A stretch of DNA of 64,000 nt from a virus. The stretch spans positions 45,137 to 109,136 of the IMG/VR virus record IMGVR_UViG_3300020193_000005; one strand, 5' to 3'. Under the pieces are notes generated by a model that made no database searches, was not told where the DNA came from, and saw only the letters and a list, made by a program, of their open reading frames with translations. Position numbers and translations under genes: made by a program. This document shows positions 23,402 through 43,739 of this stretch, piece after piece; positions within the stretch are counted from its first letter, which is position 1; the number at the start of each line of letters is the position of its first letter.

Positions 23402-24261
23402 TGTCCGACGACCCCAACTCGAAAAGACAAGTGGCGAAAATAGCCAGATACATGGGGTGCAGGGGGGTTCATTTATCCTCCGAAGGAAAATGGCTTCCGT
23501 GCGCGGATGCCGAAACCCTGAGAAGACTGAGCACCGCCGCCGAGGACGATTCGTGGATAAAAAAGTACGAGAAGTCGCTGTTCCTGCTTCCCGGCGGGAT
23601 CGTGGCCGAAAAAACGGCTTACACCAAACCCAAATTGAGGGAGTCTATAAAGAACAGAATCATGGCGGGATCGCGCGGCGGAAAACCGGGTCAATGGTCG
23701 GCTAGAAAAGCCCAATTGGTGGCCATTGAATACCGTAAGGCCGGCGGCGGATACAGGGGGAAGAAAACAAAAAAACAAAGATCTCTCTCCAAGTGGACGA
23801 AGGAAAAATGGACCACGTCCGACGGCAAGCCGGCGATAAGAAAAGGAGGGACCAGACGGTATCTACCGTCCAAGGCGTGGCGCAAGCTGACGCCCGCACA
23901 GAAAAGAGCCACCAATCGCAAAAAAATAAGCGGCAGCAGGAAAGGTAGGCAGTTCGTCGCCAATACCGATGCCGCCGCGGAAGCCAGACGATCGGCGACT
24001 AAATCTCTGATTTCCCAAATGTCAACCAAATCAATCGTCGTACAGAATTTCTCCGAGCTCAACGGTCGCGGTTCCAAGAGAAAAAAGAGGGGGAGGCGCT
24101 GGGAAAAATTGCACGAAAGGGGTCCTTTCTCCGCCCTCGGAACGCCCGGTCTTGGGATCACCTCAAGCCCGGGAGTGATCTCGGCATCGCTGACCAAGAG
24201 GCTCTACGACGCTAGCGACGACGTCAAAAATTATCTGGATATCAAAAGACGTAGCTACTAA
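23398..24261 (+). CDS. Basic protein with DUF3721-like Cys motif and DUF5872-like domain
   Basis: ARYMGCRGVH...WLPC; YTKPKLRESIK...GGKPGQWSARKAQL...YRKAGGGY...SLSKWTKEKW...RYLP. Confidence 0.8.
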   Translation: MMSDDPNSKRQVAKIARYMGCRGVHLSSEGKWLPCADAETLRRLSTAAEDDSWIKKYEKSLFLLPGGIVAEKTAYTKPKLRESIKNRIMAGSRGGKPGQWSARKAQLVAIEYRKAGGGYRGKKTKKQRSLSKWTKEKWTTSDGKPAIRKGGTRRYLPSKAWRKLTPAQKRATNRKKISGSRKGRQFVANTDAAAEARRSATKSLISQMSTKSIVVQNFSELNGRGSKRKKRGRRWEKLHERGPFSALGTPGLGITSSPGVISASLTKRLYDASDDVKNYLDIKRRSY

Positions 24262-24338: not shown

Positions 24339-27300
24339 ATGACCGAAGATCACGAACAAGGCGATTGTTGCCCGCTCTCGCCGGACGGGCATTCGCCCGA
24401 GGAAAAATCGTTTTCTTTCGGTCCGAGACAAGTCAGGCCCGACGAATTTGACGCATTTGTTGACAAGGAATCCGCTAGATCGAGGGCTCGACAACTCGGG
24501 TGCATAGGAATCAGGCAGTACAGTTCGACCGCCGGCGGTTTGATATGGATGCCCTGTAGTAACGAATCGGACTACAGAAGGGTGACCGGCAGAAGTCCCC
24601 TGGGAAGAAGGGAAAGAAGACGGATTCTTCGAAACGAAATTGAATCCGTCATGAAGAAAAAAGATCTGGGCCCGTCACTCGGAATGAGCGACGCAAGGGA
24701 CATGAACCCCGCCACGGCCATAGACGCCGACCTGGACAGACTCGTACTCGAGGGAATACCGACGATCAACCTCGGTCGCGGGGTGCCGGATCCCACTCCG
24801 TTCGGAACGGAAATTCCGAAAATTCCGGAAACTCGAAGAGTGTTGGACGCGCCGGAAAAAATTGAGGCGAGAACGCCGGACGAACCCAGGAAGAAAAAAC
24901 TGAAGCGGATACGCAAAATAATCGAACCCGTCGTCGCGCCAAAGGCGTCCCCTCTTTCGTCTGCGGCGAAAAAATTCGGAAAAATCAACTTTCAAAAAAT
25001 AACGAAGAAAAAGAAACCGAAGAAGAAAAAACTCAACTATTCGACGGTTATCGGCAACATGGAGAAACTCCTGACGGATTTTCCCGTCGACTACTCCTTC
25101 GTTCCGAAACCGATCTCCGACGATGCGAGATCGAAGCTCGGCTTGACGGGGGCGGCGGGACTACCGGCCGAAAGAATAAGATCCGGCGCGGCGATCGCGG
25201 AAATTTCGGAACAATCCATAAACTCCATGAAAAATATTTTCCAAATGATCGGATCGCAGACCGGAAATCAATACGCGTCCTTGATTGATTCGCGAATAGC
25301 GAAGATGAATTCAGCCCAGAGACCCGTCGCCCCTCGGCCGCCGACCGGATCGGCGACCTTACTGGGCGCCATTCTCTCCGTTCAGCGTTCCAATAACGAG
25401 GAGTTCATCGGAACATACGGAGTTGGGGATTCCGATTTGTTCTCGGAGAATTACGTATCGTCCATGGAGAAACTCATATCGCAGGGATTTTTTCCGGAGA
25501 CCGCGTCCTATCTGGTTTCCAATTTCAACGACATGGACGGAGGGCAGAGAAAAGCGGCGAACATGCTCGGCATGTCGGATCGCTCCCTCAGGAGACTGAG
25601 GCGGGCGGCCGAGAAATCGAACAAGGTCTTCGGGGTCGGTACGGAAACGATCGGCTTGGCGAAGGTGGACTCGGATCCTTTTGAGGTGGCGACCGCGGTC
25701 CTATTGGCGAGAAACTATCTTCTAGAGAACGCTCGCAAAAACGGCGTCGATTACGACATGTGGCGGGCCGTCAGCGAATTGACCGGGGCGAACAAGCAGG
25801 TCACGCGCCGAATGTTTTCCTCGATTTTTTCCGCGAACAGAGATTATCTCGGGGAGGTTTACGGGGACTCTCGAAACGTCTCCGAGTACGGTAACGGGCT
25901 ACTGAGGCTCGCCAGCGGCGCGGCGGCGAACATGTCGGAGAACGACGCGACCGACCTGAACTCGATGATGAACGACAGCGATTCCGGGGCTATGGCCATA
26001 TACATTCCCCCCTCGAATCGGAGACCGAGGGATATCAACCCCAAAGCATCCCTGATTTACCCGATGCACAAACGTCAATCCGGTAGTTGGAGCGAAATAG
26101 CCAAAGACGTTCAAAAAATTCTGCGAAAGATAAAGAAGAACTTTCGCCACGTGGGGGACGCAGAACCGAAGCGATTCTCGTCTCTGGAAAAAGACATCGG
26201 GCAGATCCTGTTGGAATTGTTGCCCTACAGTTTCACCGACTACGCGAGGGAGATAGCGATACTTCAGGCGATACTGAGGGATAGGGTCGAATTCAATCTT
26301 CTTCCCATCGGAGAAGTGGGGAGTAACATCGGAGGAAAATTCGTTCCGGACGTACAGAAACTCTCCGTGTTGGGGCAAAACGGATTGTTGGATTTGTTCG
26401 AACCGATCAATGCGGTCAACGCTAGAACGCCAGAAAGAGACCTCGTTCCGAAACCCCTAAGTCTCGTGAGGGCGATATCTCTTCTAACGGAGGCGCTCGA
26501 TATCGCCTCCCGAGCCGCTTCCGAAATTCTCGCCACGACCGGCAGGGAGCGATTTTACGGTGACATCGGTTTGAGAACGAGACAGGAACTCGAAAGGCGA
26601 GACAAGTCAGCAGTCAATTTTCTAGTTTCCGACGCCTACCGCACCAGAGACTACGCCGAAGACGTGGATGGGTTCTCCCCGTATGAGCAACTCGTCATTT
26701 TCGGTCGAGGAATGAAGACGACAACGGACGACGTCGGGCAGATTCGCGATTACCTCAGCGATCGCCTGAGAAGATTGGAGAGAATCACCAATTTCGGTGG
26801 CACGATGGATGCCAGCAAAATAAACATGTTCGAAGCGACCGAGTCGGGGCTCGGCGACGAAATTATCGACGCAATCAGGGGCATAAACGAAGCTTGGTTC
26901 AACACTCTTCTCCCCTCCTACGTCAAACCGGTACCGGTGGCGGATCCGTCGACTCGAGAAATTCGCGAATTGTCCCCGGGGAGTACGGCGAGAAGGTACA
27001 GAACGGCGAAACAATTCTCCGACGCGCTGGCCGAGACGTTTGACTCGCTATACATGCGAAACGCTTCGCCGGATCTCCCGTCATCTCTTTTCGACCCGGA
27101 AGGCGAAACGATAGTCAAGGACAGATTCTTCGACGCCTACGAAGAACTTTTGCCGCTGATACTGGATCCCGAGAATCCGAGTCGCCCAGCGTTTACGTAT
27201 TCGGAGATAGATGCGGCGATCCGGGAATCTTTCGCCGAACTATTGGATCGAAAGCCAAGAGGCGTCGCAGAGTTGATGAAGAATCTATTGAACGACGGTC

Positions 27301-30300
27301 TCATGGAGGACGTAAAGAGAAACTTAAGGAATAGGTTCGGCGGTTACGACGCGTCCTTGGGCGGAGATCCGCGGGTGACGGAAAAATTCAGGTTCGTAGA
27401 CGCTCAATCGATCATACCTCGCCTGACCAGGGAGCGTTCGGCGAGAAGGCTCAGGAGGGCGACCGCCTCGGTTTCCGACGACGGAGATTCGGGAAGAATG
27501 GGCGGTTTTTCCGTTCCGAGACCCATCCAGTCGGCGACCGGCGGAACCCCCGGGGGAATCGGCTTTGATAAGAATTACGTGCGATCCGGTGATCTCGCCA
27601 ACGAGATGCGTCAAATAGACGAAAACAGCAAAAGGTTTTGGGACATGGTCGACGACAAGGTGTCGTTACGGGTGGCGGCGCGCGGATTGGCTCTACTCGA
27701 AGACCTAAAAGATCCTCAAAAACTTAGATCACTCATCGACGACATTTCTTCCCTTGCCCCGACGATCAACGGCCAGAGACTGGAGCCCTATTCGAATAAC
27801 GATGCCATCGCCATAGTGAAGGGGATGAAGGATTTATTCGATAGAAACGAATTGTCGGATATTGCGAATAATTCGGTTACCTACGATCCGGACAGACCGT
27901 GGACGGCGAACGTGATGACCTTCCTGATGGGCAGGCAAACGGGGAAAAATCCGCTACCGAAACAGTTTTTCGGGGCGCACCCCGACAAGCTCAGAGACTT
28001 GAGATTCGCGCCCCTTTATTACGACAACAACATGAGAACCCTGAGACCGTTCATGGAGTCTCTAGGAATCGGATCCGACGGAGAGATGATCAAATTCGCA
28101 ATGACGGGAAGACCGATTACCGGGAGTAGAAAGCACACGAGTCCGAAGAACAAGGACAATCAGGAAGCCAATTACGTGGGAGACGTGATGGCGATGTTCG
28201 TAGAGGGTCCGGAATCTTTGTCGAGGTACTCGGGCGGCGACAACGAGAACGATCCGAGAAGAAACTCCGACGTTGGCATAGGTCAGGCTTTCGAATACGC
28301 GTATCAGGTTTATCTGCGCGATCCGAGAAGAAAAATGAACGGTTCCCCGCTTTTGACGGTGGTCGGCGATCCCGCTAGAGAATTCGCGGTGAGGAACGAT
28401 TTCCGTAAACGCATTCACGACCTGTGGAACGAAGCGGAAAGAGTCTACGGCAGAGAGATACAGGGAAGGCCGGCGCCGATTCAGGACGAAGCGTTGTATT
28501 ACGCGGCGACGCAGGCGGTCAAATTGGCGGAGACGAATTCGTCAAGATTGGTCACGAGAGAAGATTTCTCCGAGGTTATGGACGTCATCCTACGAAACGA
28601 TATGGGAAGGGGATTTAGCACCTTCGGAGAAATCGCAACGGCTATTTTGGGAGAAAAAGCCGAAGCTTTCCGCGAACTTTCCGGTGAGGATTTGCGAAAA
28701 GCCGTAATCAACTCCATGACCCCCGAGTTGAAGAAGAAATTGACGGACAAAAAAAAGAGAATGAAAACGGCGGAAGAAATCTTCTTCGCCTCGGCTGTGG
28801 CGATCGCCGATTTCCCGTGGGATTCGGACGACGATCATTCAAATAAGAAGAAAGAGGATTGGATTGAAGTCGGAAAGAGAATCGGGGAGCTGAACCAAGC
28901 CTCGGTTTTTTACGACGAATTTTATAAGTATTTGTCGGAAAACGGAGGGGATAACGCCAAGTATTTTGACGCGCGATTCGGGAAGTTCATCACATCCAAT
29001 CAATTGAGCGTGATAGTCGACGACATAGCGCCAGGATTAACCGAGGGAATCTTCGCCGGAGAATCGGGTCGCATGTCGAAGGGCGAAATGATGAGCGAGG
29101 AAGAATACAAAGCCATTGTCGCGGCTCGCAATGCCATCGTAGAAAGAGTCAGGCGAAGCAGGTTTTTGTCCTCCCTTGATTTCGCCCAGGAAAAAGTCGA
29201 CGAAATCAACGAATTAGCCGAGAAGGCCGACAAGCTGATCGAATGGAAGAGAGCGAGACTCCTGAGCCTTGTCACGCCGCGCGATGGCGCACTGACGGAC
29301 GACGACTGGTTCGTCTACGCCGCGATAGGCGGTTTCTATCGACCCTTCCGATCGATATTCCTGCAAAGATTTGACGAAAAAAGCGCTCCGATCAGCGTGA
29401 CAACGGCGAGAGATAAGCTTCGCACGTTCATAGCCGAGGCCGGATCGGACGTCGTTAGGGAACTGTTCGGATGGGTTTCGACCGCGATCAGGGGGGAGGA
29501 AGACGAGCCGACCGAGGACGGAGAAACCAAGTTTAGAACGGTCTACGAGCTGACCTCCGACGGCGGAGTATCGCCGATTTTGGATCGACCCGACCTATTC
29601 GAGCGATCCGACGACGCAAGAAACGAAATATCGTACATAGATCCGAAGGCCAAAGAACCGATCATGGTGAGAGCCGAAGACGGGAGCCTGATACCGAAAC
29701 AGAAATCCCCGGCCGAATTGAGGAAAGCCAGCACTCCCATCAAGGTATTGACTCCCTACGGAAAACTCAACAAAGCGATACTTGACGGAGCGCTAAGAGC
29801 CGGTCTCGTCGCGATGCCGTCGGCGGACGAGGCCGAGAACGAATTACCCCTAGATATAGCACTCTCCGTCTTCGGGGGAGAATTGCCTCTCATCGAATTG
29901 CCGAAATCCTGGCACGAACCGCTGAGCGACGAGGAGCTTGAGCTCACCTTCACGCGAGCCGATTTGGCCGAAATAAGTAAGCAAGTAAAATTGTTCAACA
30001 GAAGATTTGCGCTGGAGATGCTCACAGGGGAAAAGGTTTCCCCGGACGTTAGCCAGAAGGTAGTCCGCGGAAAAGCGGAATTTATCGCCACGCCGGAACA
30101 GTTGAGTCAGAATCAGGCGTTGGAAGCCATGAACCCGCTGAATCAATCGAGCGTAAAGTCCTTCGTGAATACTCTTTCGCCCGAACAGTTGAAAACGATC
30201 GGTGCGTTGTTCGGATCCGATCAATCCTCCGCCATCAAGCTGACGCCGGAAATGTTGCTCGCCGCCAACGGCGGGTTGGATGAAGTCAATCTGAGCGTCG

Positions 30301-33300
30301 CCAAATTAATCGTTGAGGCGGCGAAAAAAGTCGCATTTCTGAGGAGAACGGAAAACGGCGACGATTTGATAAACCAAAGAGTTGCGACCATCCTCGGCGA
30401 CTCATCTTTGGGCGACAACGAAAAAAAGGTGATAACCGCCGTCGGCTCCGGCGACTCGGACGCGGCGAAAAAAGCCTTCATTGATCTCCCGAGAGAGTCC
30501 GCGGCTTCCTTGTCTCGATCGTTGCTCAAACCCATTTACGACCTATCGGCGAAGGATGCTCAGGGAAATTTGGTCGCCGGGATCGCCGACGTCACGCAGA
30601 CGGACGCGGAATCGGGTCTGCAGTGGACGAGAAATCTACTGGAACATGTTTTGTCGATGCCCGAACCTTTGCAGTTTTTGGAGGAGTTCAGGAAGGGGTT
30701 GAAAACGGGTGCGGCGAGACGCGCGGTGATAGAGGTTGGCACCTCCAGAACGGCAGACCCGGGAGCAGAAACAACGGCTCTCCGAACCGTCAAACTCGAC
30801 GGAGAGTGGATGAAGCGTTTCGTGATCGGAAAACCCGTCGACGGAAAAGGGTACATAATAATGAGAGTTCTGGACGGCCAGGACAGAACGAGATTGGACG
30901 AAATGCGAGAAAAAATACAAAATTTCTCCGGTTCCTCTAGCGAAGCCGCCGAAATAATCTCGTTGATGACCGACGAAGAAGTAACGAATTTTCTCATCAA
31001 CAAGGTTTACCCGGCTTTGGTGGCGAAAGGAATGCGCGACAAATTCTCCTTCGGAATGGCCCAAGTGACGGCGGAACTTGACGCAAAAATGAGATCCATA
31101 GGCAGAAGACTGCGTAAATCCTCTTCCGTTACGGAAATCCTCGACGCGACGGAGGCGGCGATAGCCGAGGCGTTCGACGGCAGAACCAGGGACATGCTGA
31201 CCCGGGAGGAACTCGTACAGTACGGGGATCTCGTTGCGTACTTCGCCGCCGGCGGAAAGCAGATTCTCCCTCCGGAAAAATACCGATCGGCTCTTGCGGA
31301 AATGGCGGCGGAGCGACGAAGAGTGGTGCAAAGAATAAAGGATCGGGCGGACGAGGAAACGAGGGAGGAAGAGGAACTATACGAGGCGATGATGGATCCG
31401 CCCATCGAGCAGTCTCTCCTGGAGGCCTTGCAAAGAGCGAGGGATCCGCAAACCATCGCCGATTTGGCGGAGCAGGAAGAGCTGTACAGGATCATGGGCG
31501 GCGGCAGAATACCCGGATCCGGTTTGAGGCCTTACGACGGAGTAGACGAGAATCTGGGGGAGTCGACTTTCTGGAAAATGTTCCGCCCCGACCCGGTGAC
31601 GGACGACGATTCCGAACAGAACCGTTTCGGGGAGGGCGATCCGTTCGGACAATCCGATACCGGACGCATGACCATGCCGCTGCCTCCCCCGCCCCCCGAC
31701 CCGGCGGTCAACATCGGGGATAGGGAGTATTCGAGACTGACCAAGGAGAACGCCGAAAGAACTTTCGGCGCATGGACATATCAGATGATATTCAGAAACT
31801 ATTCGACCATATTCGGGGGAAGGGGTACCGGGGCACCGCACATATCTCCGCAATCATATCCGACAGCGCCGCTGACCAGAAATCCCTATCATTACGACAG
31901 GGCTCGACGCGCGATAGACGCGATGTGGAGATTGACGACGGGCGACGTGCCGGAGGCCGTCCGTATACGTCTGGAGAACGACGAGAAAGTTCAACTGGAA
32001 CAAGCCAAGGAGTGGTTGGACGATTTGATTTGGGTCACCGCGGAATACATGCGCATGGCGGGCATTGACGTGCCGGACGACTACGACCCGAAATTGGCCG
32101 CGAACAAGAACAATCCGATACAACGCATCTTCTTGGACAACATGGCGGAGGCGACTCTTCTCGCCCTTTACTTCCCGTTCACTTTCAAGATACCGGTGAG
32201 GAGTTCGGGAACGGAAGGCGCCGCCGATTGGGTTCCACAGGACGACCAGGATTTCAATGTGGAAGGGTTGAATTCGGCGGACAGACCAAATCTTATTTAC
32301 GCCGCTTATCACTCGATCGTGGCCGGGGACTTCTCGGTGTCGAGCGGCATCGATTCCGGAGGAAGGGACATCTCCAGGTGGATATTCAACCCGAAACCGC
32401 AAAACGAAGGACCCGTTACCCCGCTCGGACCCATAGAAACGGAAATTTACGGATCACGGGATGACGGAACCCCGCCGACAGACGTCGTGAGCGACGCCAC
32501 TTCGGGCGGCGAACAAGACGACGGTTCGCCGTTCCTGGAGGATCCGCTAATCAAAGAACTTACCGATTTCATCGCCACGATTATCCTGAATCCGTTTGGC
32601 GGCAGTGAATACTCGTTCAACGAATGGCTCGATCAGGCTAATCGGTACTCAAAAATTCTGGGCTCTTCGCACTACGAGAAGAGAGGTAGCGGAAAAGGCC
32701 TGATTGATCTCGTGACAGAAGATCGTAGCGTCATCAACGTGGACAAGGTGTTGTCCGAGATAATCAAGACCGGCGGCGCAGGCGACGAATTCTCGACGCC
32801 GGATTCCCTGATTTCCTTCGGGGATCTATCCATCGCCGATCCGGACTACGGTCCTTCGTTCCCGGGTGTTTCGGACGAAATCAACGCTCCGTCCATGTTC
32901 GACAACATGTCCCCTCAGGAGATATCAAAACAAAGAAAAATCGGAATATCTTCGACCAGCAAGGCGAGCCAGGCCGCGCGAGCGGGATGGTGGGCTTCGC
33001 TTCAGTCCGGAAAACACCCGATGGAGATAGCTTCCTCGGAAAAAACCAGCGACGGAATCAACTGGCATCCGGACATAGTGGAAGAGGGAATACGCAAACA
33101 CGCGAAGCAAAACGGCATTGCGTCTTCTGTCGTTGACGCGGCTTTCGACGCCGCCGAAAAGGCATACGAAGCGAAAAATTTGAGCACGGCGAAACTCAAA
33201 TCGATCGCCGCGATAAGAGAAATAGTCGACGCGAACCCGAACAATCTGGCGAAAGTTTTCAACGATTTGGAAGAACTACTGAAACAAAGAGAGTCGGAGA

Positions 33301-36300: not shown

Positions 36301-39300
36301 ACATGTTCGCCATGCACGAAAATTTGGACGAGGTAATACAAGATTCGACTCCGGGTAGATCGCGCACCCCGTTCAAGCCGTTCGGCACGCAATACAAACG
36401 AGCCCTCAAGGCGGTGCTCGCGGCCGACGACCTCTCTCAAACAATTAACGGGGTTCGTAAATCCGAGGACGCAATCAGCCCGCTCTTGCGCGATCCGAGA
36501 CAGATGATGAAGTACATTCCGGAGGATCTGAAGCGACGTTACACGGAGACCATTACAACGACCGACTCCGAACCGGCACAGGTTGAGGTGTCGGGATTCA
36601 ACGGACAAGAAGACGTGCGGGTTCTCGCCTACGTGGCATCCACAATCGCCGACCTCGCAAGTGGCGACGTTGATCGATACTTCGATGAGACGTCCCCTGG
36701 TGACACGACGATGTATTTCAACAGTCCGGAAGGAAAATTCATCGCCCTGATGGTGGCGCTGGGCAACATCAGACCGACATTTAGGTATCTACCGTACGCA
36801 AACACCCTCGGTATGTACTACAGCGGAAACGAAAACGACGAAGTGCTTGACGGTTCGGGTTTCGTGCGTGAGGTAATTTCGGAGATAGAACAAAACTACG
36901 CCGCGTGGGCGGAGCGATTCATTGATCGGTTGACCCCGATGGTGAACGACGGGGATCAAAATATGCGACTTTACGACGTGTCAAATTTCCGTGATCCGCT
37001 TACGGATGGATCGAATTGGGGAAAGAGAGTTTTCCTCGACGGAACAAATTTCAACAACAGCATCAAAGATGCGCTATTCCTGCAAGGGCAAATCGACGAC
37101 TCCGATCAGCCGACTTCCATGGTGTTGCAACTGTCGATGACTGGAGACGGGAGCGTCGTGCCGAGTTTGTCGGTCCTGGATTCGATCATTGCGCCGATGG
37201 AGGAGGCTTATTTTTTCGCTCCAGATATCAGGGACGGCATACCGGTCTCGAATTCGGGATTTTCGTTCGTCATGCCGTCGCCGATGCGGGAAACAATCAG
37301 GAGAGCGAGGGGCGACATAACCGCCGAGGGCATATTGGCGGCCGGAGAAATGGGCATAAGCATCCCTTCGTCCGAGATCGTCGAAGAGAAGTTGAGCAAT
37401 TTCATTACGCCCGAAAATTACGGGGGAGACACCGAATATTATCCGGGCATAGAAAATATGATCCGTTGGATGGTGGAACGAGGACTCGCCTCGGAGATAG
37501 TAAGGGGTCTCGATTCTCAATCGCCCGGCAGTAAGTACTCAGTCGATCCCGCCGTATTGGAAGAAATAGACATTTTGACGAGAAGCGAACCCGACTTGTT
37601 TCCGAGCGGCGGCCGCTCCGCCCCCATAGATTACACGCTCTCCCCGGATTTGGCGGCTTTGGAAAAGCTAGTGAAAGCGCCGAACGTATCCACGTCGGTT
37701 CCGCTATTCAAGAGGCAGGATTACTTCCACCTAAGGGACGCCATCCCCTATCTCGTATCGCTACTCGAGGTGATGAAACAGCGGAATACGGCGACGTTGC
37801 CGCCTTCGTACGATCTCATGCCGATCCTGAACGCAGAAACAGGCGACGTCATAGGTATGTCCCCCGGCAACATTGTTGATTCGGGTATCGATCCGACGGT
37901 ATCCCTGAACCCGAATTACTGGCCGAGGGCGACGAGATTTTCACAGATGATCATAGAAGCCGTACAGCAATCCGAAAAAATCGCCGGCTTTCCCGCGGAG
38001 CTAAAACAAATAGTCAACGAAATGACCCCGAGGGAGTTTGCCCTTCTCGATTGGATCGTTTCCATGAATCAGTCGTTACAACCCATTTTTGAGTTGTGGG
38101 ACACGAGCACGCTTGTGGCATTCGAACAAGAAGGATCGCATCCTTCGTTCAACACTAGGCGCACGATGGCGGGCACAACCGAGTATCCGTCCAGCATCTT
38201 CTCGACTGGCGAGAGGGCGTCCGGACTGCCGCTCGTAGTTCCGCCGAAAAACGTCAGAGGTCAGCAATTGACGGCGTTCGATGGCCAGGATCAGGTGCTG
38301 GATCAGGTTCCTTTCGGTTCGGAAAGAATTGAGTTCGGCGGAACGCAACCCAACAGCGTCGTCGACGATCAGGTCTACGCCTACGCAATGGATCAAATAT
38401 TCAAAAAACTCGCGTCCTACGGATCCAAGTCGTCGGAAACTTTGGTAAACGAAGTGATTTTCAACTCTCCGGTAATCCAAACGCTAAAAAACAAAACGCA
38501 GATAGACGACGACGACCTGAGAACGCTCCTTGACGACGGCAAGGAATCCGGGGAAGTGGTGGCGATGATTTTGTCCGACCTTTTGGCCGAGGGGATCATG
38601 CGGGCGGCCGTTAGAGAATCCGGAGCGAATATAAGGTACGCTCCGTTCTCGAGCGGAGACGAATCAATCAGGGTCGACGGCGTTCGGGGAGAAAATCTCC
38701 GCAAGTTTTTGGACGCGGTCCGACCCAGGCGAGATTTTTACGGATTTTGGTCGATGTACGGACCCGACGTCGTTTATTCCCTTCCCAACAACGACGAGCC
38801 TTATCTTCCGATTTGGGAAGACGACCGCAAACTGACGGAGTTTTTCGGCGTTCGACCTTACGCACCGGAAATTTTCTTCCCATACGGATCAACGGAAAAA
38901 CTGGAGAACGACGCCTCCCTGAAGGGCAGTCTCGTAGGAACCAACGAATTGTTCGACGCTCTACAAAGAAGTCCGTCCCGCTGGTGGTGGGATAGACAGG
39001 CGCCGCTAATCGGATCAACGGCAGACGATGGAAACGTTACGACCCCGGAAGCGATCGTCGACGATGCCGAAAGAACGGCGTCCCAGTACGTATTGAACAT
39101 GTCCCCGGACGAGCTGATCGAATACCTTCTCTCCGTCCAAGAGAGCGCATCGGGAAGAAGAACGGAAGAATCGGGAGTCGCAGTTAGACCGCCGAATTTA
39201 CCGTCGATTTTGCGACGAGCTTTCGGCGACATGAACGATTTGACTTTCGAAAACATTCCGTATAACAAACTGGACGAATGGACCGGCACGATAGTTTCGG

Positions 39301-42300
39301 AGCTCAACCCTCGCGACGTTACGCCCGAAAGAGTGATGGAAGAACTGCGCAGAATATTCCCGTACATGGGCAACGGAGACGAGGACTATTTCCCAGTAGT
39401 CGGAACGCTCTTTGACGAAGCGATGGAGACACTGTCCAGGTTCGGCGACGAAAGTGACCCGCTAAAGATGAGTCCTTCGCAATTTTTCGGCGGAGAAAAA
39501 CTGGACGAGCTCGCAGAAATTAGTTCGCGTACCCGAGAAGAAATAGAATCCAGAATAAGGGCGATCATGCGTTTTCCTGAGATTTTCAACGACCAAACGT
39601 TGATTTCGGACAACGATAGTTTGCTCAAAGCAATCGGCTACGTGGAAAGCGAAACCGTCAGGAAAGCCCGCTTCAGCAATCTGATGTCCCAGCTGAGACA
39701 ATCCCTCGATACGCAAATGAGAAGGGTCGCCGAGGGTCAGAGGATGTTGAACGATTTGAGGAGAGCCGCGGCCGTACTGACGAAACCCGACGATCAATTT
39801 GCGAAAATGTCCTCGGTGGCGATGGCGATAAACGAATACATAGATTCCCGTCGGGTGGCCGGGGACATAAACGACGTCACCGCTTTTAGGTTGAAGTCCG
39901 AACTTCAACAAATCATAATCAGAAACGTCTTCGGTACGGAAATTGACGGCGTCGGAGGTAGCGCGCTCATGATGCAATTCGCAGACATGATTCCGTACAT
40001 ACCGGAAAGATTGGAGTCCTTCTCTAGAACGCGGGACGAAGCGAGAAGCGGTTACAAGACCATCTACGACTCAATCATATCCTCGGGAACCTCTCCTTTC
40101 GTCGGCGTCAAGGCGACCTTTCCCACCCTGGCCGACGTGGAAAATTTCATGTCCGAGTTCGAGAAAGAAACGGGTAGACCCTTCGATCCGGACAAAGACA
40201 TGAATGCGATCCCGGCGGGTGGCAACATTCCGTCGAACATTTTCGTCAGAATATTGGCGCAAAGAATCAACGACGACGCGACGGAAAGCTTGGTGGATCG
40301 CGGCCTGCCGCTACCACAATCCGAGAACGCGGAATTGCTGGCCATTCTCGACGCTCTTTCGCAGGCACAGACGATGATCTACGCAAAACTTAGGGGTTTT
40401 GAGCGGGCGGACGCCAACGCGGGGGTCTTCGGAAACGTCAAGACGATGAAGGACGTCGGCAGGGAGATATCGGAACTGACCGCCAGAAACGAAGCGGTAA
40501 AAGCTCGATACAAGCTGATAGGTCGCTATAAAGCCGAGGTCGTGGATCCGATGCTCGAGTCTTTCAACGACAACCAGGAAGAAAACCTGCAGAAGATGAA
40601 GACGTTCAGGGAATGGTTGGCGGACTCGGGTTACGAGGACATGTTGGGAGACGGTTCCGACTCGGATTCGGGAGCCATGTCGACTCATGCCATGGTCGTG
40701 TCAAGGTTCAACGATCCGGCGAGAGCGGCGATTCTTTACGGAGCGGACGAATCCATGGCAGACAAGACGGATTTCGTGACGACCGGTCACTTGCTCATCG
40801 GGGCGTGGAGAGCGGTGGAATCCGTCATGGAGGAAGAAGGATCCTTGAAGCTTTCTCAAATAGCCTCCGTTACGACCCTGAGAAATGTTCTCGCCAACAT
40901 GAACAAGGCCGCCGGAAAAGACAGGGGAAACAAGCCGAGAATCACCGACTTTACCGCGCACGCGAAAAAAGCCATGACGAACGCAATTCTCGTCGCTTCG
41001 CAAAGGGGATCCGATCTAATAGACGTAGCGGATCTCGTGTCAGCGATTCTTAGACCGTCCCTGAACGAGGGCAAAGACGACGGTTTGGGCGACGCGCTTT
41101 CCGAGGCGGGAATATCGGTTGCCGATACCCTTCTGGCTTTCCAGGGGTACTTGACGGCAGCGACCGCCCCCGCTCAAGCCGACTCCGGCTCGATGACCGT
41201 GGGAAGAGCCGTAGACGCCAGAAGAGAATCGGTCAGGGAAAGAACAAGGGCGCGTCTAGCGCATAAGGCGGCGTGGTTCAACCCGTACGGAGCTTATTTG
41301 CTCGGGAAGAGCGACGACGGCGAGATTCCGCCCGGATTCTCGCAGATAAATATTTCGCCCGAAAAAATCAACGACGAAGCCCTGGTTAGGGAAGTCTCCA
41401 GACTGGGCGACATCTACGCCATGTCGATAACGTCGGGCGCGCTTCCTGCGGAGGATTTCCGATCCGGCGAATCGCCGTTCGACGACGTACCGGAACGACC
41501 GTTCAATTCAATATCGACTTTCGGGGAGCTCGGGCAAAGACCGACGGATCTGGTCGGAGCCATCCGTGACGCGATAACGAGGGCCGACGCGTTGATCGTC
41601 GATCAGACGCAACGGGACAGGTTGAATCAATACCTCGCCGACATGAAGTTGATGTTCGACAATTACCTGCACGTCGACGAAGTAATGGGTGGCGATTCCG
41701 GGGCGATGAGAAGAAGAAATCCCCGTACCATCGCCGAAATAATAGAGCCGATCAGGGACATGTTCGCGAAGGAAGAAAAATACGGACAAAAGAAGTATTA
41801 CGAGCACATCTACGGTCCCGTTTACGATACTCAAAGCCAGTTGAACAAGTCCGCTAGATACGAGGCGTATAGGTCGCCGTTCGAGCTGTCCAATAATCTC
41901 AGGATAGAAAAAGACGACATTCAGTGGAGCACCAACGACTGGGTCTACAAGAAGGACGACAAATTCATAGAGGCCGCGGACGCCGTGATAATCAAAATGC
42001 GGGACGGAAACTTCGCCACCGCACAAGTGGCCATGATCACCAGGAAGAGCGGTCCGTTCAGGGGATCCATATCTACGGTCGGAGGTCTGAGGGACGGCGA
42101 CGAAGATTTGATGACCACCGCCATAAGAGAGGCGACGGAAGAAGTCGGACTGCCCGAGGAGATGATCCTGCAGGCGGTTCCGCTCGGAATGATAGAAGCC
42201 CCGGACTGGGATCCGCGATTCGCGAACGGAATAAGAGTGGCGGCGGGAATGTTCGTCGTCCCCTGGGATACGGATCTTTCCGCCGGATCCGACGCAAGCG

Positions 42301-43739
42301 GAGCCGAGTGGATTCCGCTATCCGAAATAGCATCGGGACAAAGATCGATCGGTTTCGGACACGCCGAGTGGTTGAGAAGGGCGGTTGCGTCGATGACCAT
42401 AGATCCCGATAGCGATCCGTTCGGGGAGCTGAGAACGTCGATAGCCAGAAGGCTCTCCTTGCTTTCCAAGGCGGCGAGATTACGCAACCAAAGAATGATC
42501 GAGAGAATAAACGACATCCGCAGAGCCACCGGTAAGCCCCTGCTTCTCCAGTCCGGAAAGATGCCACACCCCATGATGCCGTGGGGGAAGAAGGTCGCCA
42601 GGTCGGTTTGGTCTTTCGGTAAATCGGAGAGCTCCGGCGACTCGGGTGCGATGTCGGCGGAGATGGGACGCGATCTACGAAAAGCTCTCGGTCTGGGGGA
42701 CGAAAACGGCGCTCCTAAATCCGAATACATATCTTCCCAGGAATGGAACGGTGCGAATTCCGCATCCCTTCCGAGCACGTTAGGTTTTTACGGAACTCCG
42801 CAAATTTCGTTCGGAGAAAAATCCGAGGTAGAACAATCAATCGCCGGATTCATGGATCCGACGCAGTATTCCGTTCCGAGTAGAGCAACGGGCCTCTGGA
42901 TACCCTACATAGACAGGAGCGTCGCCAGGGCGGCGGCCAATAGAACAACGGATCCCAAGGCAGTGCCGACGGCGTACATTATCGGCGGACCCTCCGGCGC
43001 CGGAAAGTCCTATCTGAGGACTTCCGGTTACGACGGAATACCGGGTTACGATTTCGCCGTTACGGCGGATCCGGACGACGCAAAGATCGTTTCCCCCGAA
43101 TTCGCTTACTTTGCCGAAGCCATAGGCAAGAGAGAAAACGGAAAACCCATATACCGTGGACCCTCCATAGCGGCCGCGTTGCATGAGGAGACTAGATCCG
43201 TATCCAACGCTCTCTATATGTCAGGCATGAATTCCGGTCTGGACGTCGTGTACGACACCAGCGGTCAGTTCAGGGACGGCAATACCCTGGGACTGACGAA
43301 GGCGTTCGGTTATTCAATCAAGGGTTATTACGTATTCGGTCAGCCGGGAATACTGGAGAGCAGGGTCGCCGAAAGAGGGGATACCAGTGGAAGATTCGTG
43401 AGCAGAGGCATGTCTGAAACCATAGGAAACAACCTGGCTAGCATCATCCCGCAAATTGTTCAGTACTTCGACGAGTTGAAGATTCTCGACTCATCGACCA
43501 ACGTGGAGAGACCGAAGGTCGTGGCGATATACAAGAAGTCCCCGGACGCCATTCAGGGCAAACCCGATAACGGACAACTAATCGGTCAATGGGAAGTTTT
43601 GTCGCCGATATTCTTCAAGTACGTCAATGTCGTCGGTCCGGCTGGCGCGGGAAGCCAGGAGATGCAAAAAAACTTCAGACAATACAAGATCATCCCTGTG
43701 ACATTTGACTCCAGAACCATGTTGTGGCCCGATCAATAA
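24339..43739 (+). CDS. Giant 6466-aa multidomain virion cargo protein/polyprotein: DUF3721-like and shared tag, HTH arrays, Clp-N repeat, Nudix hydrolase, C-terminal zeta-toxin-like kinase
   Basis: Single 19.4-kb ORF; Nudix box GLRDGDEDLMTTAIREATEEVGL at 42084-42152; P-loop GGPSGAGKS at 42984 with DPDDAK; Clp-N-like RFNDPAR..GHLL and FTAHAKKA..DLVSAIL; ten DSGAM-type motifs. Confidence 0.85.
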   Translation: MTEDHEQGDCCPLSPDGHSPEEKSFSFGPRQVRPDEFDAFVDKESARSRARQLGCIGIRQYSSTAGGLIWMPCSNESDYRRVTGRSPLGRRERRRILRNEIESVMKKKDLGPSLGMSDARDMNPATAIDADLDRLVLEGIPTINLGRGVPDPTPFGTEIPKIPETRRVLDAPEKIEARTPDEPRKKKLKRIRKIIEPVVAPKASPLSSAAKKFGKINFQKITKKKKPKKKKLNYSTVIGNMEKLLTDFPVDYSFVPKPISDDARSKLGLTGAAGLPAERIRSGAAIAEISEQSINSMKNIFQMIGSQTGNQYASLIDSRIAKMNSAQRPVAPRPPTGSATLLGAILSVQRSNNEEFIGTYGVGDSDLFSENYVSSMEKLISQGFFPETASYLVSNFNDMDGGQRKAANMLGMSDRSLRRLRRAAEKSNKVFGVGTETIGLAKVDSDPFEVATAVLLARNYLLENARKNGVDYDMWRAVSELTGANKQVTRRMFSSIFSANRDYLGEVYGDSRNVSEYGNGLLRLASGAAANMSENDATDLNSMMNDSDSGAMAIYIPPSNRRPRDINPKASLIYPMHKRQSGSWSEIAKDVQKILRKIKKNFRHVGDAEPKRFSSLEKDIGQILLELLPYSFTDYAREIAILQAILRDRVEFNLLPIGEVGSNIGGKFVPDVQKLSVLGQNGLLDLFEPINAVNARTPERDLVPKPLSLVRAISLLTEALDIASRAASEILATTGRERFYGDIGLRTRQELERRDKSAVNFLVSDAYRTRDYAEDVDGFSPYEQLVIFGRGMKTTTDDVGQIRDYLSDRLRRLERITNFGGTMDASKINMFEATESGLGDEIIDAIRGINEAWFNTLLPSYVKPVPVADPSTREIRELSPGSTARRYRTAKQFSDALAETFDSLYMRNASPDLPSSLFDPEGETIVKDRFFDAYEELLPLILDPENPSRPAFTYSEIDAAIRESFAELLDRKPRGVAELMKNLLNDGLMEDVKRNLRNRFGGYDASLGGDPRVTEKFRFVDAQSIIPRLTRERSARRLRRATASVSDDGDSGRMGGFSVPRPIQSATGGTPGGIGFDKNYVRSGDLANEMRQIDENSKRFWDMVDDKVSLRVAARGLALLEDLKDPQKLRSLIDDISSLAPTINGQRLEPYSNNDAIAIVKGMKDLFDRNELSDIANNSVTYDPDRPWTANVMTFLMGRQTGKNPLPKQFFGAHPDKLRDLRFAPLYYDNNMRTLRPFMESLGIGSDGEMIKFAMTGRPITGSRKHTSPKNKDNQEANYVGDVMAMFVEGPESLSRYSGGDNENDPRRNSDVGIGQAFEYAYQVYLRDPRRKMNGSPLLTVVGDPAREFAVRNDFRKRIHDLWNEAERVYGREIQGRPAPIQDEALYYAATQAVKLAETNSSRLVTREDFSEVMDVILRNDMGRGFSTFGEIATAILGEKAEAFRELSGEDLRKAVINSMTPELKKKLTDKKKRMKTAEEIFFASAVAIADFPWDSDDDHSNKKKEDWIEVGKRIGELNQASVFYDEFYKYLSENGGDNAKYFDARFGKFITSNQLSVIVDDIAPGLTEGIFAGESGRMSKGEMMSEEEYKAIVAARNAIVERVRRSRFLSSLDFAQEKVDEINELAEKADKLIEWKRARLLSLVTPRDGALTDDDWFVYAAIGGFYRPFRSIFLQRFDEKSAPISVTTARDKLRTFIAEAGSDVVRELFGWVSTAIRGEEDEPTEDGETKFRTVYELTSDGGVSPILDRPDLFERSDDARNEISYIDPKAKEPIMVRAEDGSLIPKQKSPAELRKASTPIKVLTPYGKLNKAILDGALRAGLVAMPSADEAENELPLDIALSVFGGELPLIELPKSWHEPLSDEELELTFTRADLAEISKQVKLFNRRFALEMLTGEKVSPDVSQKVVRGKAEFIATPEQLSQNQALEAMNPLNQSSVKSFVNTLSPEQLKTIGALFGSDQSSAIKLTPEMLLAANGGLDEVNLSVAKLIVEAAKKVAFLRRTENGDDLINQRVATILGDSSLGDNEKKVITAVGSGDSDAAKKAFIDLPRESAASLSRSLLKPIYDLSAKDAQGNLVAGIADVTQTDAESGLQWTRNLLEHVLSMPEPLQFLEEFRKGLKTGAARRAVIEVGTSRTADPGAETTALRTVKLDGEWMKRFVIGKPVDGKGYIIMRVLDGQDRTRLDEMREKIQNFSGSSSEAAEIISLMTDEEVTNFLINKVYPALVAKGMRDKFSFGMAQVTAELDAKMRSIGRRLRKSSSVTEILDATEAAIAEAFDGRTRDMLTREELVQYGDLVAYFAAGGKQILPPEKYRSALAEMAAERRRVVQRIKDRADEETREEEELYEAMMDPPIEQSLLEALQRARDPQTIADLAEQEELYRIMGGGRIPGSGLRPYDGVDENLGESTFWKMFRPDPVTDDDSEQNRFGEGDPFGQSDTGRMTMPLPPPPPDPAVNIGDREYSRLTKENAERTFGAWTYQMIFRNYSTIFGGRGTGAPHISPQSYPTAPLTRNPYHYDRARRAIDAMWRLTTGDVPEAVRIRLENDEKVQLEQAKEWLDDLIWVTAEYMRMAGIDVPDDYDPKLAANKNNPIQRIFLDNMAEATLLALYFPFTFKIPVRSSGTEGAADWVPQDDQDFNVEGLNSADRPNLIYAAYHSIVAGDFSVSSGIDSGGRDISRWIFNPKPQNEGPVTPLGPIETEIYGSRDDGTPPTDVVSDATSGGEQDDGSPFLEDPLIKELTDFIATIILNPFGGSEYSFNEWLDQANRYSKILGSSHYEKRGSGKGLIDLVTEDRSVINVDKVLSEIIKTGGAGDEFSTPDSLISFGDLSIADPDYGPSFPGVSDEINAPSMFDNMSPQEISKQRKIGISSTSKASQAARAGWWASLQSGKHPMEIASSEKTSDGINWHPDIVEEGIRKHAKQNGIASSVVDAAFDAAEKAYEAKNLSTAKLKSIAAIREIVDANPNNLAKVFNDLEELLKQRESERKETSNQYQERIRRPILAHAATLKAYEEILKVKLKELNDLMAGDKTSKSEAVDKYRKAVVGVYADIVNITRAIRKMHRDSVASKRALDAIDEEIEQIRDYVQRAAKAVNVSVKAINQRMQMIRAIKNGIAASGTDSGAMSIPMKFGSEILYIPANPRITREKPQSLLSSFEKALVRAAATIGDGTNEIPEQASLVLPNLRMIRSGLFEEFVGLPNRNSVRSIGNSLRVALNKFASAVTAEEFLRESMGDRFVNFRSLGFNLLPEKTRRIAEDAILDGTMVSSANNGVTENDAIGAMIMHAEATEAVRNAIIGSSIRDAAEYLNVSQDTVRDAIETESKLADLTRDVTRAHSLARRLSKSNDRRYTSNFVRRKFYDLIQDGFPEERLLYPSTFSRNQAVAAAQNALRVNEIYGLTEQELMAASGSDEEISRLISYLRTREAKASARKFNDLPENWTRMSFAEKNSWLSSEEGLRAFGRFGVMVQAQLIQQEINDFGIPDGPVFAMGTKIFEKETMIPSMINERGVSRLFVADPLTSYDLLRSGNNSYLMLEDRLPSLYEISDEGMARFLNSSPELISEFRNGNLMLSEKAAEKIAKAVGLDYAEIWGMRRPQIATNEGNFYWLASNWALVGPTISAINDGTPTNSISDLVNDGGRKIPQKVSELISSGVVDAFYDAVNPNGITQADADGYIASLGKKKRKEVISILASAGYGESEIVASTGFNPNTVRNVLRETRMSGMAPAAVGSREWTMSNARAIRADSKNGVSKRELMRKYGIGARSLNSILSEGSSVAYRSAYRSDSGAMASRRLNDEAKVARREATDQDKIVVGEEMGITKDVMGNEIRDIPGFHPIVARVANPFEAENGAGLNADGTNKVESPENTVIENIVMMWKSITDLFVNYALSGGRIRLPSDKFRYVAGFGEDVLVDLVWADKVSNMGRETNSYGTTYAKTQLDAMRGEFSFAIKTLLKKVMEEKELRGGIDGLANAIAGQLGLVPSLFGYMFAMHENLDEVIQDSTPGRSRTPFKPFGTQYKRALKAVLAADDLSQTINGVRKSEDAISPLLRDPRQMMKYIPEDLKRRYTETITTTDSEPAQVEVSGFNGQEDVRVLAYVASTIADLASGDVDRYFDETSPGDTTMYFNSPEGKFIALMVALGNIRPTFRYLPYANTLGMYYSGNENDEVLDGSGFVREVISEIEQNYAAWAERFIDRLTPMVNDGDQNMRLYDVSNFRDPLTDGSNWGKRVFLDGTNFNNSIKDALFLQGQIDDSDQPTSMVLQLSMTGDGSVVPSLSVLDSIIAPMEEAYFFAPDIRDGIPVSNSGFSFVMPSPMRETIRRARGDITAEGILAAGEMGISIPSSEIVEEKLSNFITPENYGGDTEYYPGIENMIRWMVERGLASEIVRGLDSQSPGSKYSVDPAVLEEIDILTRSEPDLFPSGGRSAPIDYTLSPDLAALEKLVKAPNVSTSVPLFKRQDYFHLRDAIPYLVSLLEVMKQRNTATLPPSYDLMPILNAETGDVIGMSPGNIVDSGIDPTVSLNPNYWPRATRFSQMIIEAVQQSEKIAGFPAELKQIVNEMTPREFALLDWIVSMNQSLQPIFELWDTSTLVAFEQEGSHPSFNTRRTMAGTTEYPSSIFSTGERASGLPLVVPPKNVRGQQLTAFDGQDQVLDQVPFGSERIEFGGTQPNSVVDDQVYAYAMDQIFKKLASYGSKSSETLVNEVIFNSPVIQTLKNKTQIDDDDLRTLLDDGKESGEVVAMILSDLLAEGIMRAAVRESGANIRYAPFSSGDESIRVDGVRGENLRKFLDAVRPRRDFYGFWSMYGPDVVYSLPNNDEPYLPIWEDDRKLTEFFGVRPYAPEIFFPYGSTEKLENDASLKGSLVGTNELFDALQRSPSRWWWDRQAPLIGSTADDGNVTTPEAIVDDAERTASQYVLNMSPDELIEYLLSVQESASGRRTEESGVAVRPPNLPSILRRAFGDMNDLTFENIPYNKLDEWTGTIVSELNPRDVTPERVMEELRRIFPYMGNGDEDYFPVVGTLFDEAMETLSRFGDESDPLKMSPSQFFGGEKLDELAEISSRTREEIESRIRAIMRFPEIFNDQTLISDNDSLLKAIGYVESETVRKARFSNLMSQLRQSLDTQMRRVAEGQRMLNDLRRAAAVLTKPDDQFAKMSSVAMAINEYIDSRRVAGDINDVTAFRLKSELQQIIIRNVFGTEIDGVGGSALMMQFADMIPYIPERLESFSRTRDEARSGYKTIYDSIISSGTSPFVGVKATFPTLADVENFMSEFEKETGRPFDPDKDMNAIPAGGNIPSNIFVRILAQRINDDATESLVDRGLPLPQSENAELLAILDALSQAQTMIYAKLRGFERADANAGVFGNVKTMKDVGREISELTARNEAVKARYKLIGRYKAEVVDPMLESFNDNQEENLQKMKTFREWLADSGYEDMLGDGSDSDSGAMSTHAMVVSRFNDPARAAILYGADESMADKTDFVTTGHLLIGAWRAVESVMEEEGSLKLSQIASVTTLRNVLANMNKAAGKDRGNKPRITDFTAHAKKAMTNAILVASQRGSDLIDVADLVSAILRPSLNEGKDDGLGDALSEAGISVADTLLAFQGYLTAATAPAQADSGSMTVGRAVDARRESVRERTRARLAHKAAWFNPYGAYLLGKSDDGEIPPGFSQINISPEKINDEALVREVSRLGDIYAMSITSGALPAEDFRSGESPFDDVPERPFNSISTFGELGQRPTDLVGAIRDAITRADALIVDQTQRDRLNQYLADMKLMFDNYLHVDEVMGGDSGAMRRRNPRTIAEIIEPIRDMFAKEEKYGQKKYYEHIYGPVYDTQSQLNKSARYEAYRSPFELSNNLRIEKDDIQWSTNDWVYKKDDKFIEAADAVIIKMRDGNFATAQVAMITRKSGPFRGSISTVGGLRDGDEDLMTTAIREATEEVGLPEEMILQAVPLGMIEAPDWDPRFANGIRVAAGMFVVPWDTDLSAGSDASGAEWIPLSEIASGQRSIGFGHAEWLRRAVASMTIDPDSDPFGELRTSIARRLSLLSKAARLRNQRMIERINDIRRATGKPLLLQSGKMPHPMMPWGKKVARSVWSFGKSESSGDSGAMSAEMGRDLRKALGLGDENGAPKSEYISSQEWNGANSASLPSTLGFYGTPQISFGEKSEVEQSIAGFMDPTQYSVPSRATGLWIPYIDRSVARAAANRTTDPKAVPTAYIIGGPSGAGKSYLRTSGYDGIPGYDFAVTADPDDAKIVSPEFAYFAEAIGKRENGKPIYRGPSIAAALHEETRSVSNALYMSGMNSGLDVVYDTSGQFRDGNTLGLTKAFGYSIKGYYVFGQPGILESRVAERGDTSGRFVSRGMSETIGNNLASIIPQIVQYFDELKILDSSTNVERPKVVAIYKKSPDAIQGKPDNGQLIGQWEVLSPIFFKYVNVVGPAGAGSQEMQKNFRQYKIIPVTFDSRTMLWPDQ

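Follow-up and report, generated by a model that had tools for sequence, protein, structure and literature searches.

A 6466-residue open reading frame beside the capsid gene of an uncultured phage as a candidate tagged capsid-cargo polyprotein

Introduction

What is the role of an uninterrupted open reading frame (ORF) of 6466 amino acids placed immediately before a phage capsid gene? The ORF lies in IMG/VR virus record IMGVR_UViG_3300020193_000005, which is 109,136 bp long; the window, meaning the whole stretch that we analyzed, is the right-hand 64 kb of that record (64,000 nucleotides, record positions 45,137 to 109,136), and coordinates are those of the window unless marked as contig coordinates. 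The phage is uncultured and myovirus-like, and the ORF is one of five giant chains that belong to its head-morphogenesis module. Our reading, held with slightly more confidence than doubt, is that it encodes a tagged capsid-cargo polyprotein, the largest of the five, which would be cut by the phage's own S78 prohead protease.

Results

The initial annotation had described the product of this ORF as a regularly punctuated, multi-unit protein of the head module, encoded directly upstream of the capsid gene. The location is as described: the gene that follows, at 44068/44128-45501, matches the capsid family PF05065 with an E value of 6e-43. Scanning the protein with the regular expression [DE][ST]GxM gave 10 matches, at residues 548, 1050, 1575, 2440, 3122, 3786, 5443, 5615, 5786, and 6101, identical to those listed before, whereas 2000 shuffles of the same protein gave a mean of 0.25 and a maximum of 3. 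The sites divide the chain into segments 1 to 11, of 552, 502, 525, 865, 682, 664, 1657, 172, 171, 315, and 361 amino acids, and this spacing, together with the domain assignments given below, supports the description of a punctuated, multi-unit protein. Promoter and terminator scans around the ends of the ORF gave nothing exceeding background.

24339..43739, plus strand: predicted polyprotein ORF, 6466 amino acids, uninterrupted, the last putative cargo gene before the capsid gene; its N terminus aligns with orthologues from residue 1
25980..25994, plus strand: motif site 1, DSGAM (residues 548-552), position kept in orthologues
27486..27500, plus strand: motif site 2, DSGRM (residues 1050-1054), missing in orthologue P0004
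29061..29075, plus strand: motif site 3, ESGRM (residues 1575-1579), kept in orthologues P0003 and P0004, aligning poorly in more distant ones
31656..31670, plus strand: motif site 4, DTGRM (residues 2440-2444), position kept in orthologues
33702..33716, plus strand: motif site 5, DSGAM (residues 3122-3126), position kept in orthologues
35694..35708, plus strand: motif site 6, DSGAM (residues 3786-3790), followed by a conserved A/S-N/S-R-R-L in all orthologues
40665..40679, plus strand: motif site 7, DSGAM (residues 5443-5447), position kept in orthologues
41181..41195, plus strand: motif site 8, DSGSM (residues 5615-5619), position kept in orthologues
41694..41708, plus strand: motif site 9, DSGAM (residues 5786-5790), position kept in orthologues
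42639..42653, plus strand: motif site 10, DSGAM (residues 6101-6105), position kept in orthologues

The motif is a property of the head module. Scanned in all six frames, the complete contig gave 32 matches, all of them in frame in five giant plus-strand ORFs (11 in a chain of 3750 amino acids, 6 in one of 2180, 4 in one of 2527, 1 in one of 2040, and the 10 described above), and none in other frames, on the opposite strand, or elsewhere in the contig. The five ORFs sit downstream of portal-MuF and upstream of the gene for the HK97-type capsid protein, in a module for which shuffles gave an expectation of 0.92 matches. The codons used at the motif vary synonymously (GAC and GAT for Asp; AGC, TCC, TCG, and TCT for Ser; all four codons for Gly), and the constraint must therefore be on the peptide; D and E interchange, as do S and T. 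The consensus is [G/S]-D-S-G-A-M-[S/R/T/A], with Gly and Ser enriched before the sites and a region rich in Arg and Pro after them. Because the residue preceding Met is the most variable position of the motif (A, R, E, K, L, Q, or S), Met is the better candidate for P1, and a cut would most likely fall just after this invariant residue.

Searching IMG/VR with the capsid protein identified 286 related loci, the best 80 at 66-78% identity, on contigs of up to 169 kb; the nearest cultured phages by this protein, at ~46% identity, are Brevibacterium phage Cantare and Gordonia phages GMA6 and DalanDe. Assignment of a host from capsid-gene matches in metagenome-assembled genomes was rejected, the labels obtained (Actinomycetota, Phycisphaerae, and Bacteroidia) being mutually inconsistent. 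With the C-terminal 1019 amino acids of the 6466-amino-acid protein as the query, we found 22 giant homologues of 3739-6396 amino acids in JGI, ENA, Logan, and NCBI assemblies, and the five orthologues that were taken in full have open frames of 4975-5553 amino acids with zero stops. An assembly chimera is ruled out by these 22 full-length, colinear homologues, which come from independent assemblies and lack internal stops. Each clade spells the site in its own way:

Clade A (the window, P0003, and P0004): [DE][ST]GxM
Clade B (P0005-7 and P0009): P[TV]ASM
Clade C (P0008 and P0010-15): [AE/AD]AGM
Clade D (P0016-21): P[VSI]GxM
Clade E (P0022-23, L043, L055, L060, and L066): [IV][ST]GxM

Met ends the site in every clade, and sites of different clades share alignment columns at 9 of the 10 positions seen in the window. 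In two clade C records, EAGM occurred 18 times forward and 0 times in reverse, and 15 times and once, respectively, following the coding strand of the giant-ORF module, and the reversed-pattern controls gave 0-1 matches. Positions that stay fixed while the spelling changes clade by clade, across all of the giant head proteins, bear the signature that would be expected of a cleavage site tracking its protease.

The suggestion in the initial annotation that the protein is a cassette able to gain or lose units held in part. It largely failed for the close orthologues, in which unit-wise gain or loss at motif sites had been anticipated: over the C-terminal region P0003 is 67%, P0004 60%, and members of clades B to D 34-44% identical, all are colinear, and comparison of the homologues revealed no whole-unit insertions or deletions at sites. 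Their length differences are indels inside segments (segment 7, for example, has 1657 amino acids in the window versus ~990), and segments 2 and 3 are shorter or otherwise subdivided. A DUF4314 domain has been inserted within segment 7 of P0004 without flanking sites, and the sole site lost, at residue 1050, is also in P0004. In distant clades, on the other hand, cassettes do move between polyproteins. The capsid-proximal polyprotein of clade E holds a 228-amino-acid unit homologous to segment 6 of the 2180-amino-acid protein (46% over the whole unit), and that of L066 contains what in the window is a separate gene for a 287-amino-acid protein (72% identity). The Nudix unit is bracketed by sites both in clade E and in the window (327 versus 315 amino acids), and in clade E the Nudix and zeta units are split by other units or located elsewhere. 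Within the contig itself, a DUF4314 unit and its upstream site are duplicated between the 3750- and 2180-amino-acid chains.

Such movement would be compatible with a motif that acts at the DNA or RNA level, either as a recombination joint or by giving each unit its own start, an ATG behind an internal ribosome-binding site. Every site does end in ATG, and site-bounded units of matching length across distant clades would suit a joint. The nucleotides, however, are not conserved beyond what the peptide needs (Ser is AGC or TCN, all four Gly codons are used, and the fourth residue varies), fifteen variable bases cannot direct homologous exchange, and the close orthologues lack the whole-unit indels at sites that a joint should leave. 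Nor is there consistent Shine-Dalgarno spacing, the PTASM and ISGRM spellings encoding no such sequence at all. On the strength of the synonymous codon variation and the nonconserved Shine-Dalgarno sequence, we rejected both the internal start and the recombination joint; a role in nucleic acid is very improbable.

We next consider what the sites enclose. The initial annotation had assigned one recognizable unit to each of several segments, and the helix-turn-helix (HTH) array, Clp_N, Nudix, and zeta kinase assignments were all recovered.

24417..24668, plus strand: N-terminal Cys-motif domain, DUF3721-like (residues 27-110, segment 1); Pfam DUF3721 E value of 1.3e-4, below the cut-off for a match
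33717..35708, plus strand: segment 6, 664 amino acids, array of HTH units; HTH_23 and PHROG matches
35709..40679, plus strand: segment 7, 1657 amino acids, the largest unit, ~660 amino acids longer than in clades B-D
40701..41075, plus strand: Clp_N double repeat without ATPase, in segment 8 (172 amino acids); orthologue profile against PDB
41196..41708, plus strand: segment 9, 171 amino acids, conserved helical unit; orthologue alignment
41997..42374, plus strand: NUDIX hydrolase domain, in segment 10 (315 amino acids); PF00293 at 32.4 bits against a cut-off of 21.1, and phrog_1198
42948..43490, plus strand: zeta-toxin-like P-loop kinase domain, in segment 11 (361 amino acids); PF06414 at 35.8 bits against a cut-off of 22.3

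In segment 6, HTH_23 scored 27.7 bits (cut-off, 24.6) and matched five of six orthologues, and PHROG families of HTH proteins and regulators matched local residues 421-472. A profile built from six orthologues of segment 8 matched the mycobacterial ClpC2 structure 9p2p in PDB with an E value of 2.5e-11 and many ClpC1/ClpC N-domains at ~1e-9; the match spans positions 8-132 of the 172, the lone sequence gives an E value of only 0.02, and PF02861 is among the precomputed annotations of most giant homologues. The Nudix box of segment 10 is complete (GGLRDGDEDLMTTAIREATEEVGL, following the pattern Gx5Ex7REUxEExGU), and the kinase of segment 11 has the Walker A sequence GGPSGAGKS of the Zeta toxin/AAA_33 type. 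Four of the products would thus have a readable predicted activity: an HTH array binding DNA, a ClpC N-domain without ATPase, a Nudix hydrolase, and a zeta-like P-loop kinase. The ClpC N-domain product of segment 8 is likely to be a decoy or adaptor for host ClpC.

In segment 1, the Cys-motif domain is followed by a tag shared with other chains (see below) and then by a Lys-rich stretch; tblastn found this domain in 58 related loci. The Cys motif itself (LGCxGxHx..GxWMPC type, DUF3721-like) occurs in the gene for the 287-amino-acid protein and again at the N terminus of the 6466-amino-acid protein, and in many relatives both copies are found in one small basic protein with its own gene directly upstream of the capsid gene; compared with that arrangement, the gene for the 287-amino-acid protein supplies the other half in the window.

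For the rest of the chain the searches were largely silent. PHROGs, run over all segments, gave HTH and Nudix matches only. No recognizable family was found for segments 2-5 (502-865 amino acids) with PHROGs, or for segments 4 and 5 with profiles against PDB sequences; segment 7 matched no family in PHROGs or as a profile against PDB sequences, and the ESM Atlas gave nothing usable for it. The profile of segment 9 likewise had no significant match among PDB sequences, and its AlphaFold2 model is helical at low confidence (predicted local distance difference test score [pLDDT] of 54). Altogether, ~80% of the 6466-amino-acid protein lacks a recognized family.

This large unassigned share, the helical model of segment 9, and the absence of a recognized separate scaffold gene between the portal and capsid genes could all be explained if the cut products were mainly structural, forming an internal head body or scaffold that organizes assembly or the packaged DNA, rather than injected effectors; processed inner-body proteins occur in phiKZ-like phages (PMC10052503). 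The Nudix, zeta-like kinase, Clp_N, and HTH units, however, are enzymes or host directed and ill suited to a scaffold, and the cargo set varies strongly among clades, unlike core structural proteins, so that we consider a mainly structural role unlikely. Individually, the seven remaining products could be either effectors or internal head structure.

A second question is whether the chain carries the means to enter the head. Next to the Cys-motif domain lies a stretch of ~36 amino acids, copies of which, 60-83% identical, are present in five large proteins of the contig.

24648..24824, plus strand: shared tag (residues 104-162 of the 6466-amino-acid protein), with the core DADLDRLVLEGIPxxNLGRGxPDPTPFG

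The other copies are at residues 21-89 of the 2180-amino-acid protein, 24-75 of a 956-amino-acid protein, 210-274 of the 2040-amino-acid protein, and 563-640 of the 3750-amino-acid protein, where the tag comes after the protease domain. In the 2180- and 956-amino-acid proteins, motif or motif-like sites follow directly after the tag, an arrangement such as a removable targeting peptide would have. When 1.84 billion representative proteins were searched with a profile of the tag, only 35 clusters were found to carry it, 33 of which are longer than 850 amino acids. It occurs once in 34 of the 35 (nine stretches matched in P0053), and its start lies among the first 300 residues with few exceptions, such as protease-headed chains, in which it is near residue 520-580.

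The sites also fall between domains. Single domains are bracketed by them: Clp_N in a segment of 172 amino acids, Nudix in 315, zeta in 361, and, in the 3750-amino-acid chain, DUF4314 in 159. An AlphaFold2 model of the C-terminal 1019 amino acids places all three of its sites within stretches of pLDDT below 50, which lends the idea of linkers weak support because 41% of all residues in the model score below 50 (mean pLDDT, 54). These data bear on the possibility that the motif is never cut and that the ORF encodes one giant polyvalent protein, with the repeated pentapeptide serving for docking or as a hinge, bound for instance by a capsid-interior or chaperone site. Classical polyvalent proteins and the virion RNA polymerase (vRNAP) of phage N4 can act uncleaved (PMC5512222), and repeated short linear motifs can serve multivalent binding. 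Such an element, however, would not be expected to keep to domain borders and stay out of domains, to occur twice with two residues between the copies (as in L060) or in tandem pairs 17-21 residues apart (as in other chains of the contig), or to stand directly after a removable-looking tag in two chains, in a system to which a protease gene is fused. We therefore give an uncut chain a low probability.

If the chain is cut, which enzyme is responsible? The module offers two candidates.

Contig 27789-39041, plus strand: 3750-amino-acid polyprotein with 11 motif sites; S78 at its N terminus, then DUF6321, DUF4314, and sigma-70 region-4-like HTH units
11039..13909, plus strand: 956-amino-acid tagged protein with HExGH...NxETYAE, a candidate zincin

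Peptidase_S78 (PF04586) matches residues 32-177 of the 3750-amino-acid protein with a score of 45.4 bits (curated cut-off, 21). A His (in WGH) and a Ser (in EWSIGY) are invariant in an alignment with clade E relatives and DalanDe and are presumably the catalytic pair, by analogy with the His/Ser dyad of HK97 gp4; a phmmer search of the S78 N terminus against PDB gave no match. S78 is present in all three clade E genomes rated complete, which use an x[ST]GxM-type code (I[ST]GxM), whereas the 956-amino-acid family is absent from two of them and gives just a 14.8-bit fragment in the third; S78 is therefore favored. In the protease-bearing ORFs of clade E, sites directly follow the protease and DUF6321 domains, which is consistent with self-release. 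The clade E protease gene is only ~800-900 amino acids long, compared with the 3750-amino-acid polyprotein here.

The alternative is that the chain is cut at the motif by another enzyme, either the 956-amino-acid possible zincin, packaged together with it, or a host protease, and perhaps only after injection. The HExGH and distal NxETYAE of the 956-amino-acid protein are invariant in five orthologues, the protein bears the same tag as the giant chains, the capsid protein has no copy of the motif, and a role for zincin (MPTase) domains in processing polyvalent proteins, either inside the head or once they have been injected, has been proposed (PMC5512222). With ~410 amino acids between its two motifs, it might be a novel zincin. 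Its peptidase fold, however, is without support from Pfam or PDB (no significant peptidase match; the best E values, 0.08-0.1, are owed to HExxH alone), and its family is missing in two of three complete clade E genomes that still use x[ST]GxM, S78 being present in all three. We regard cutting by another enzyme as unlikely.

Capsid proteins are the canonical S78 substrates, and the one encoded here lacks [DE][ST]GxM.

44128..45501 (start 44068/44128), plus strand: major capsid protein of the HK97 fold; delta-like region at the N terminus; PF05065 E value of 6e-43, and phrog_10

It does have a sequence, GRNGANM (44473-44493, residues 136-142), that shows little or no variation among 14 capsid proteins drawn from all motif clades. 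Located at the likely border of the delta domain and ending in Met, GRNGANM is its only candidate maturation site.

The surroundings of the locus are those of a head module. The 109-kb contig is a myovirus-like genome with tail sheath, baseplate J, large terminase, portal-MuF, and capsid genes, and a plus-strand run of genes for proteins of 3750, 123, 674, 2180, 2527, 956, 100, 189, 697, 2040, 287, and 6466 amino acids ends in the capsid gene. The head module makes up ~60% of the contig, and ~47% is accounted for by the five giant ORFs. The remaining features of this region are as follows.

Contig 25427-27715: portal protein with a C-terminal fusion to MuF (PF04233)
1..3135, plus strand: C-terminal part of the 2180-amino-acid polyprotein; 6 motif sites, one of them within the window, HTH arrays, and the N-terminal tag
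3451..11034, plus strand: 2527-amino-acid polyprotein; 4 motif sites and a DEDD exonuclease-like region
16849..22971, plus strand: 2040-amino-acid tagged protein with one motif site (DTGRM); motif scan and tag match
23398..24261, plus strand: 287-amino-acid protein, DUF5872 plus DUF3721-like; fused into a giant ORF in relative L066

The DEDD exonuclease-like region (phrog_192, E value of 1.4e-7) occupies residues 1324-1505 of the 2527-amino-acid polyprotein, and residues 2373-2682 of the 3750-amino-acid polyprotein are paralogous to it at 23% identity. Downstream of the capsid gene are an SNase-like nuclease (46027-46434, plus strand), two C5 cytosine DNA methyltransferases (46655-47566 and 50780-52135, minus strand), and an SNF2-family helicase (47563-49611, minus strand). 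A gene for a one-piece, full-length transfer-messenger RNA (tmRNA) lies at 53464-53849 on the minus strand (RF00023, 96.9 bits; tag peptide ANKQFALAA). We rejected the idea of a prophage beside a host tmRNA gene or attachment site, the whole 109-kb record being viral and the tmRNA phage borne. At contig 18131-20049 (minus strand), a protein with a PAPS (3′-phosphoadenosine-5′-phosphosulfate) reductase domain adjoins a ParB-N-domain protein, a pairing often tied to phage DNA modification.

Discussion

Taken together, the observations suggest the following scheme. The 6466-amino-acid chain would be translated whole, and its N-proximal tag of ~36 amino acids would recruit it into the procapsid. 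There the S78 protease, from the N terminus of the first polyprotein, would cut it at the ten [DE][ST]GxM sites, and the 11 products, of ~19-182 kDa, would remain in the head and enter the host along with the DNA.

Several points weigh against this scheme. We infer cleavage, the cutting enzyme, the exact scissile bond, packaging, and ejection from the sequences. The capsid protein, the usual substrate of an S78 protease, does not contain the motif, and its GRNGANM does not covary with the motif of the clade. Motif class follows phylogeny, so that coevolution of protease and substrate is inseparable from shared descent. The large fraction of the chain outside recognized families and the low quality of the structural model count on the same side. 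We know of no precedent for Met at P1 among prohead proteases. Neither this lineage nor a prohead-protease code ending in Met was found described in our literature search.

More tentatively still, and with somewhat less than even confidence, we suggest that the lineage devotes about half its genome to cargo delivery, by means of a tag-loaded HK97-type procapsid and a clade-specific Met-ending code, with ~37 proteins per virion set. If this is true, the capsid would be a programmable multiprotein injector, its logic resembling that of encapsulin cargo loading joined to the processing of viral polyproteins. The 6466-amino-acid protein would be among the largest phage proteins known, in a double-stranded DNA phage that uses polyprotein processing in the style of RNA viruses for protein delivery, and its five-residue, Met-ending code would be a new prohead-protease specificity. 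The cleavage code would be a simple one, the candidate tag of ~36 amino acids could be used for loading foreign proteins into HK97-type capsids, and the products would form a catalogue of ~37 candidate early effectors, mostly without a recognized fold, of which the ClpC N-domain mimic, the Nudix hydrolase, and the zeta-like kinase may counter host defense or proteostasis. The clade-wise respelling of the sites would provide a natural experiment on protease-substrate coevolution.

Of the systems with which this locus can be compared, the polyvalent proteins of phages and conjugative elements are closest in content. These proteins have 2-15 domains, and the prediction for them is packaging in the capsid and delivery alongside the DNA, perhaps with release through proteolysis; hub domains of the class include MuF, ArdC-N, MPTase, SNF2, and methylases, and processing by the embedded zincin (MPTase) has been proposed (PMC5512222). 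As in polyvalent proteins, unrelated effector-type domains (HTH array, Clp_N, NUDIX, and Zeta_toxin) are joined in one ORF, and TerL, portal-MuF, S78, and an HK97-type capsid gene are found in the same module. Unlike them, the 6466-amino-acid ORF has no hub domain detectable with Pfam or PHROGs, MuF being on the portal, and the system has a strict, clade-specific pentapeptide at 32 sites in five chains, with S78 fused to the first chain.

The resemblance to N4 vRNAP lies in size: that protein, of ~3500 amino acids, is packaged in the capsid and injected, but it is a single enzyme rather than a punctuated chain, and no RNA polymerase was detected in the 6466-amino-acid ORF. Segment 8 resembles the ClpC2-type stand-alone ClpC N-domain proteins of Actinobacteria (PDB 9p2p and 8ad9), which also have a double Clp_N without an AAA+ module; it differs in being phage encoded and one bead of a predicted polyprotein. 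Among the actinophages with the nearest capsid proteins, Gordonia phage DalanDe has gp27 (L004:22424-27325), a 1633-amino-acid "capsid maturation protease" encoded directly upstream of the capsid gene, as here. This protein is a quarter of the size, has its protease at the C-terminal end, and shows no evident regular repeated motif; DalanDe might serve in the laboratory as a model of head cargo fused to a protease.

In its logic the proposed scheme comes closest to the processed head proteins of phages T4, phiKZ, and SPN3US, in which the prohead protease cuts propeptides away at a short motif and internal proteins are ejected (PMC10052503). In T4, the internal proteins IPI-III and Alt have a capsid-targeting sequence that is cut by gp21, and the ejection or inner-body proteins of phiKZ and SPN3US are cut by gp175 and gp245 (PMC10052503, PMC5694885). 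The prohead protease in the head module and one short motif common to several head proteins have counterparts here, and the tag would correspond to the N-terminal targeting region. In those phages, however, the proteins are encoded by separate genes, each has one main cut after Glu (e.g., A/S/G-x-E), and the proteases are of the T4 gp21 type, whereas here up to 11 products per ORF and ~37 over five ORFs would arise, by predicted cutting at a Met-ending motif, with a protease of the HK97 S78 family. Thus, the mix of domains matches that of polyvalent proteins, and the logic matches that of the internal proteins of T4 and the ejection proteins of phiKZ and SPN3US.

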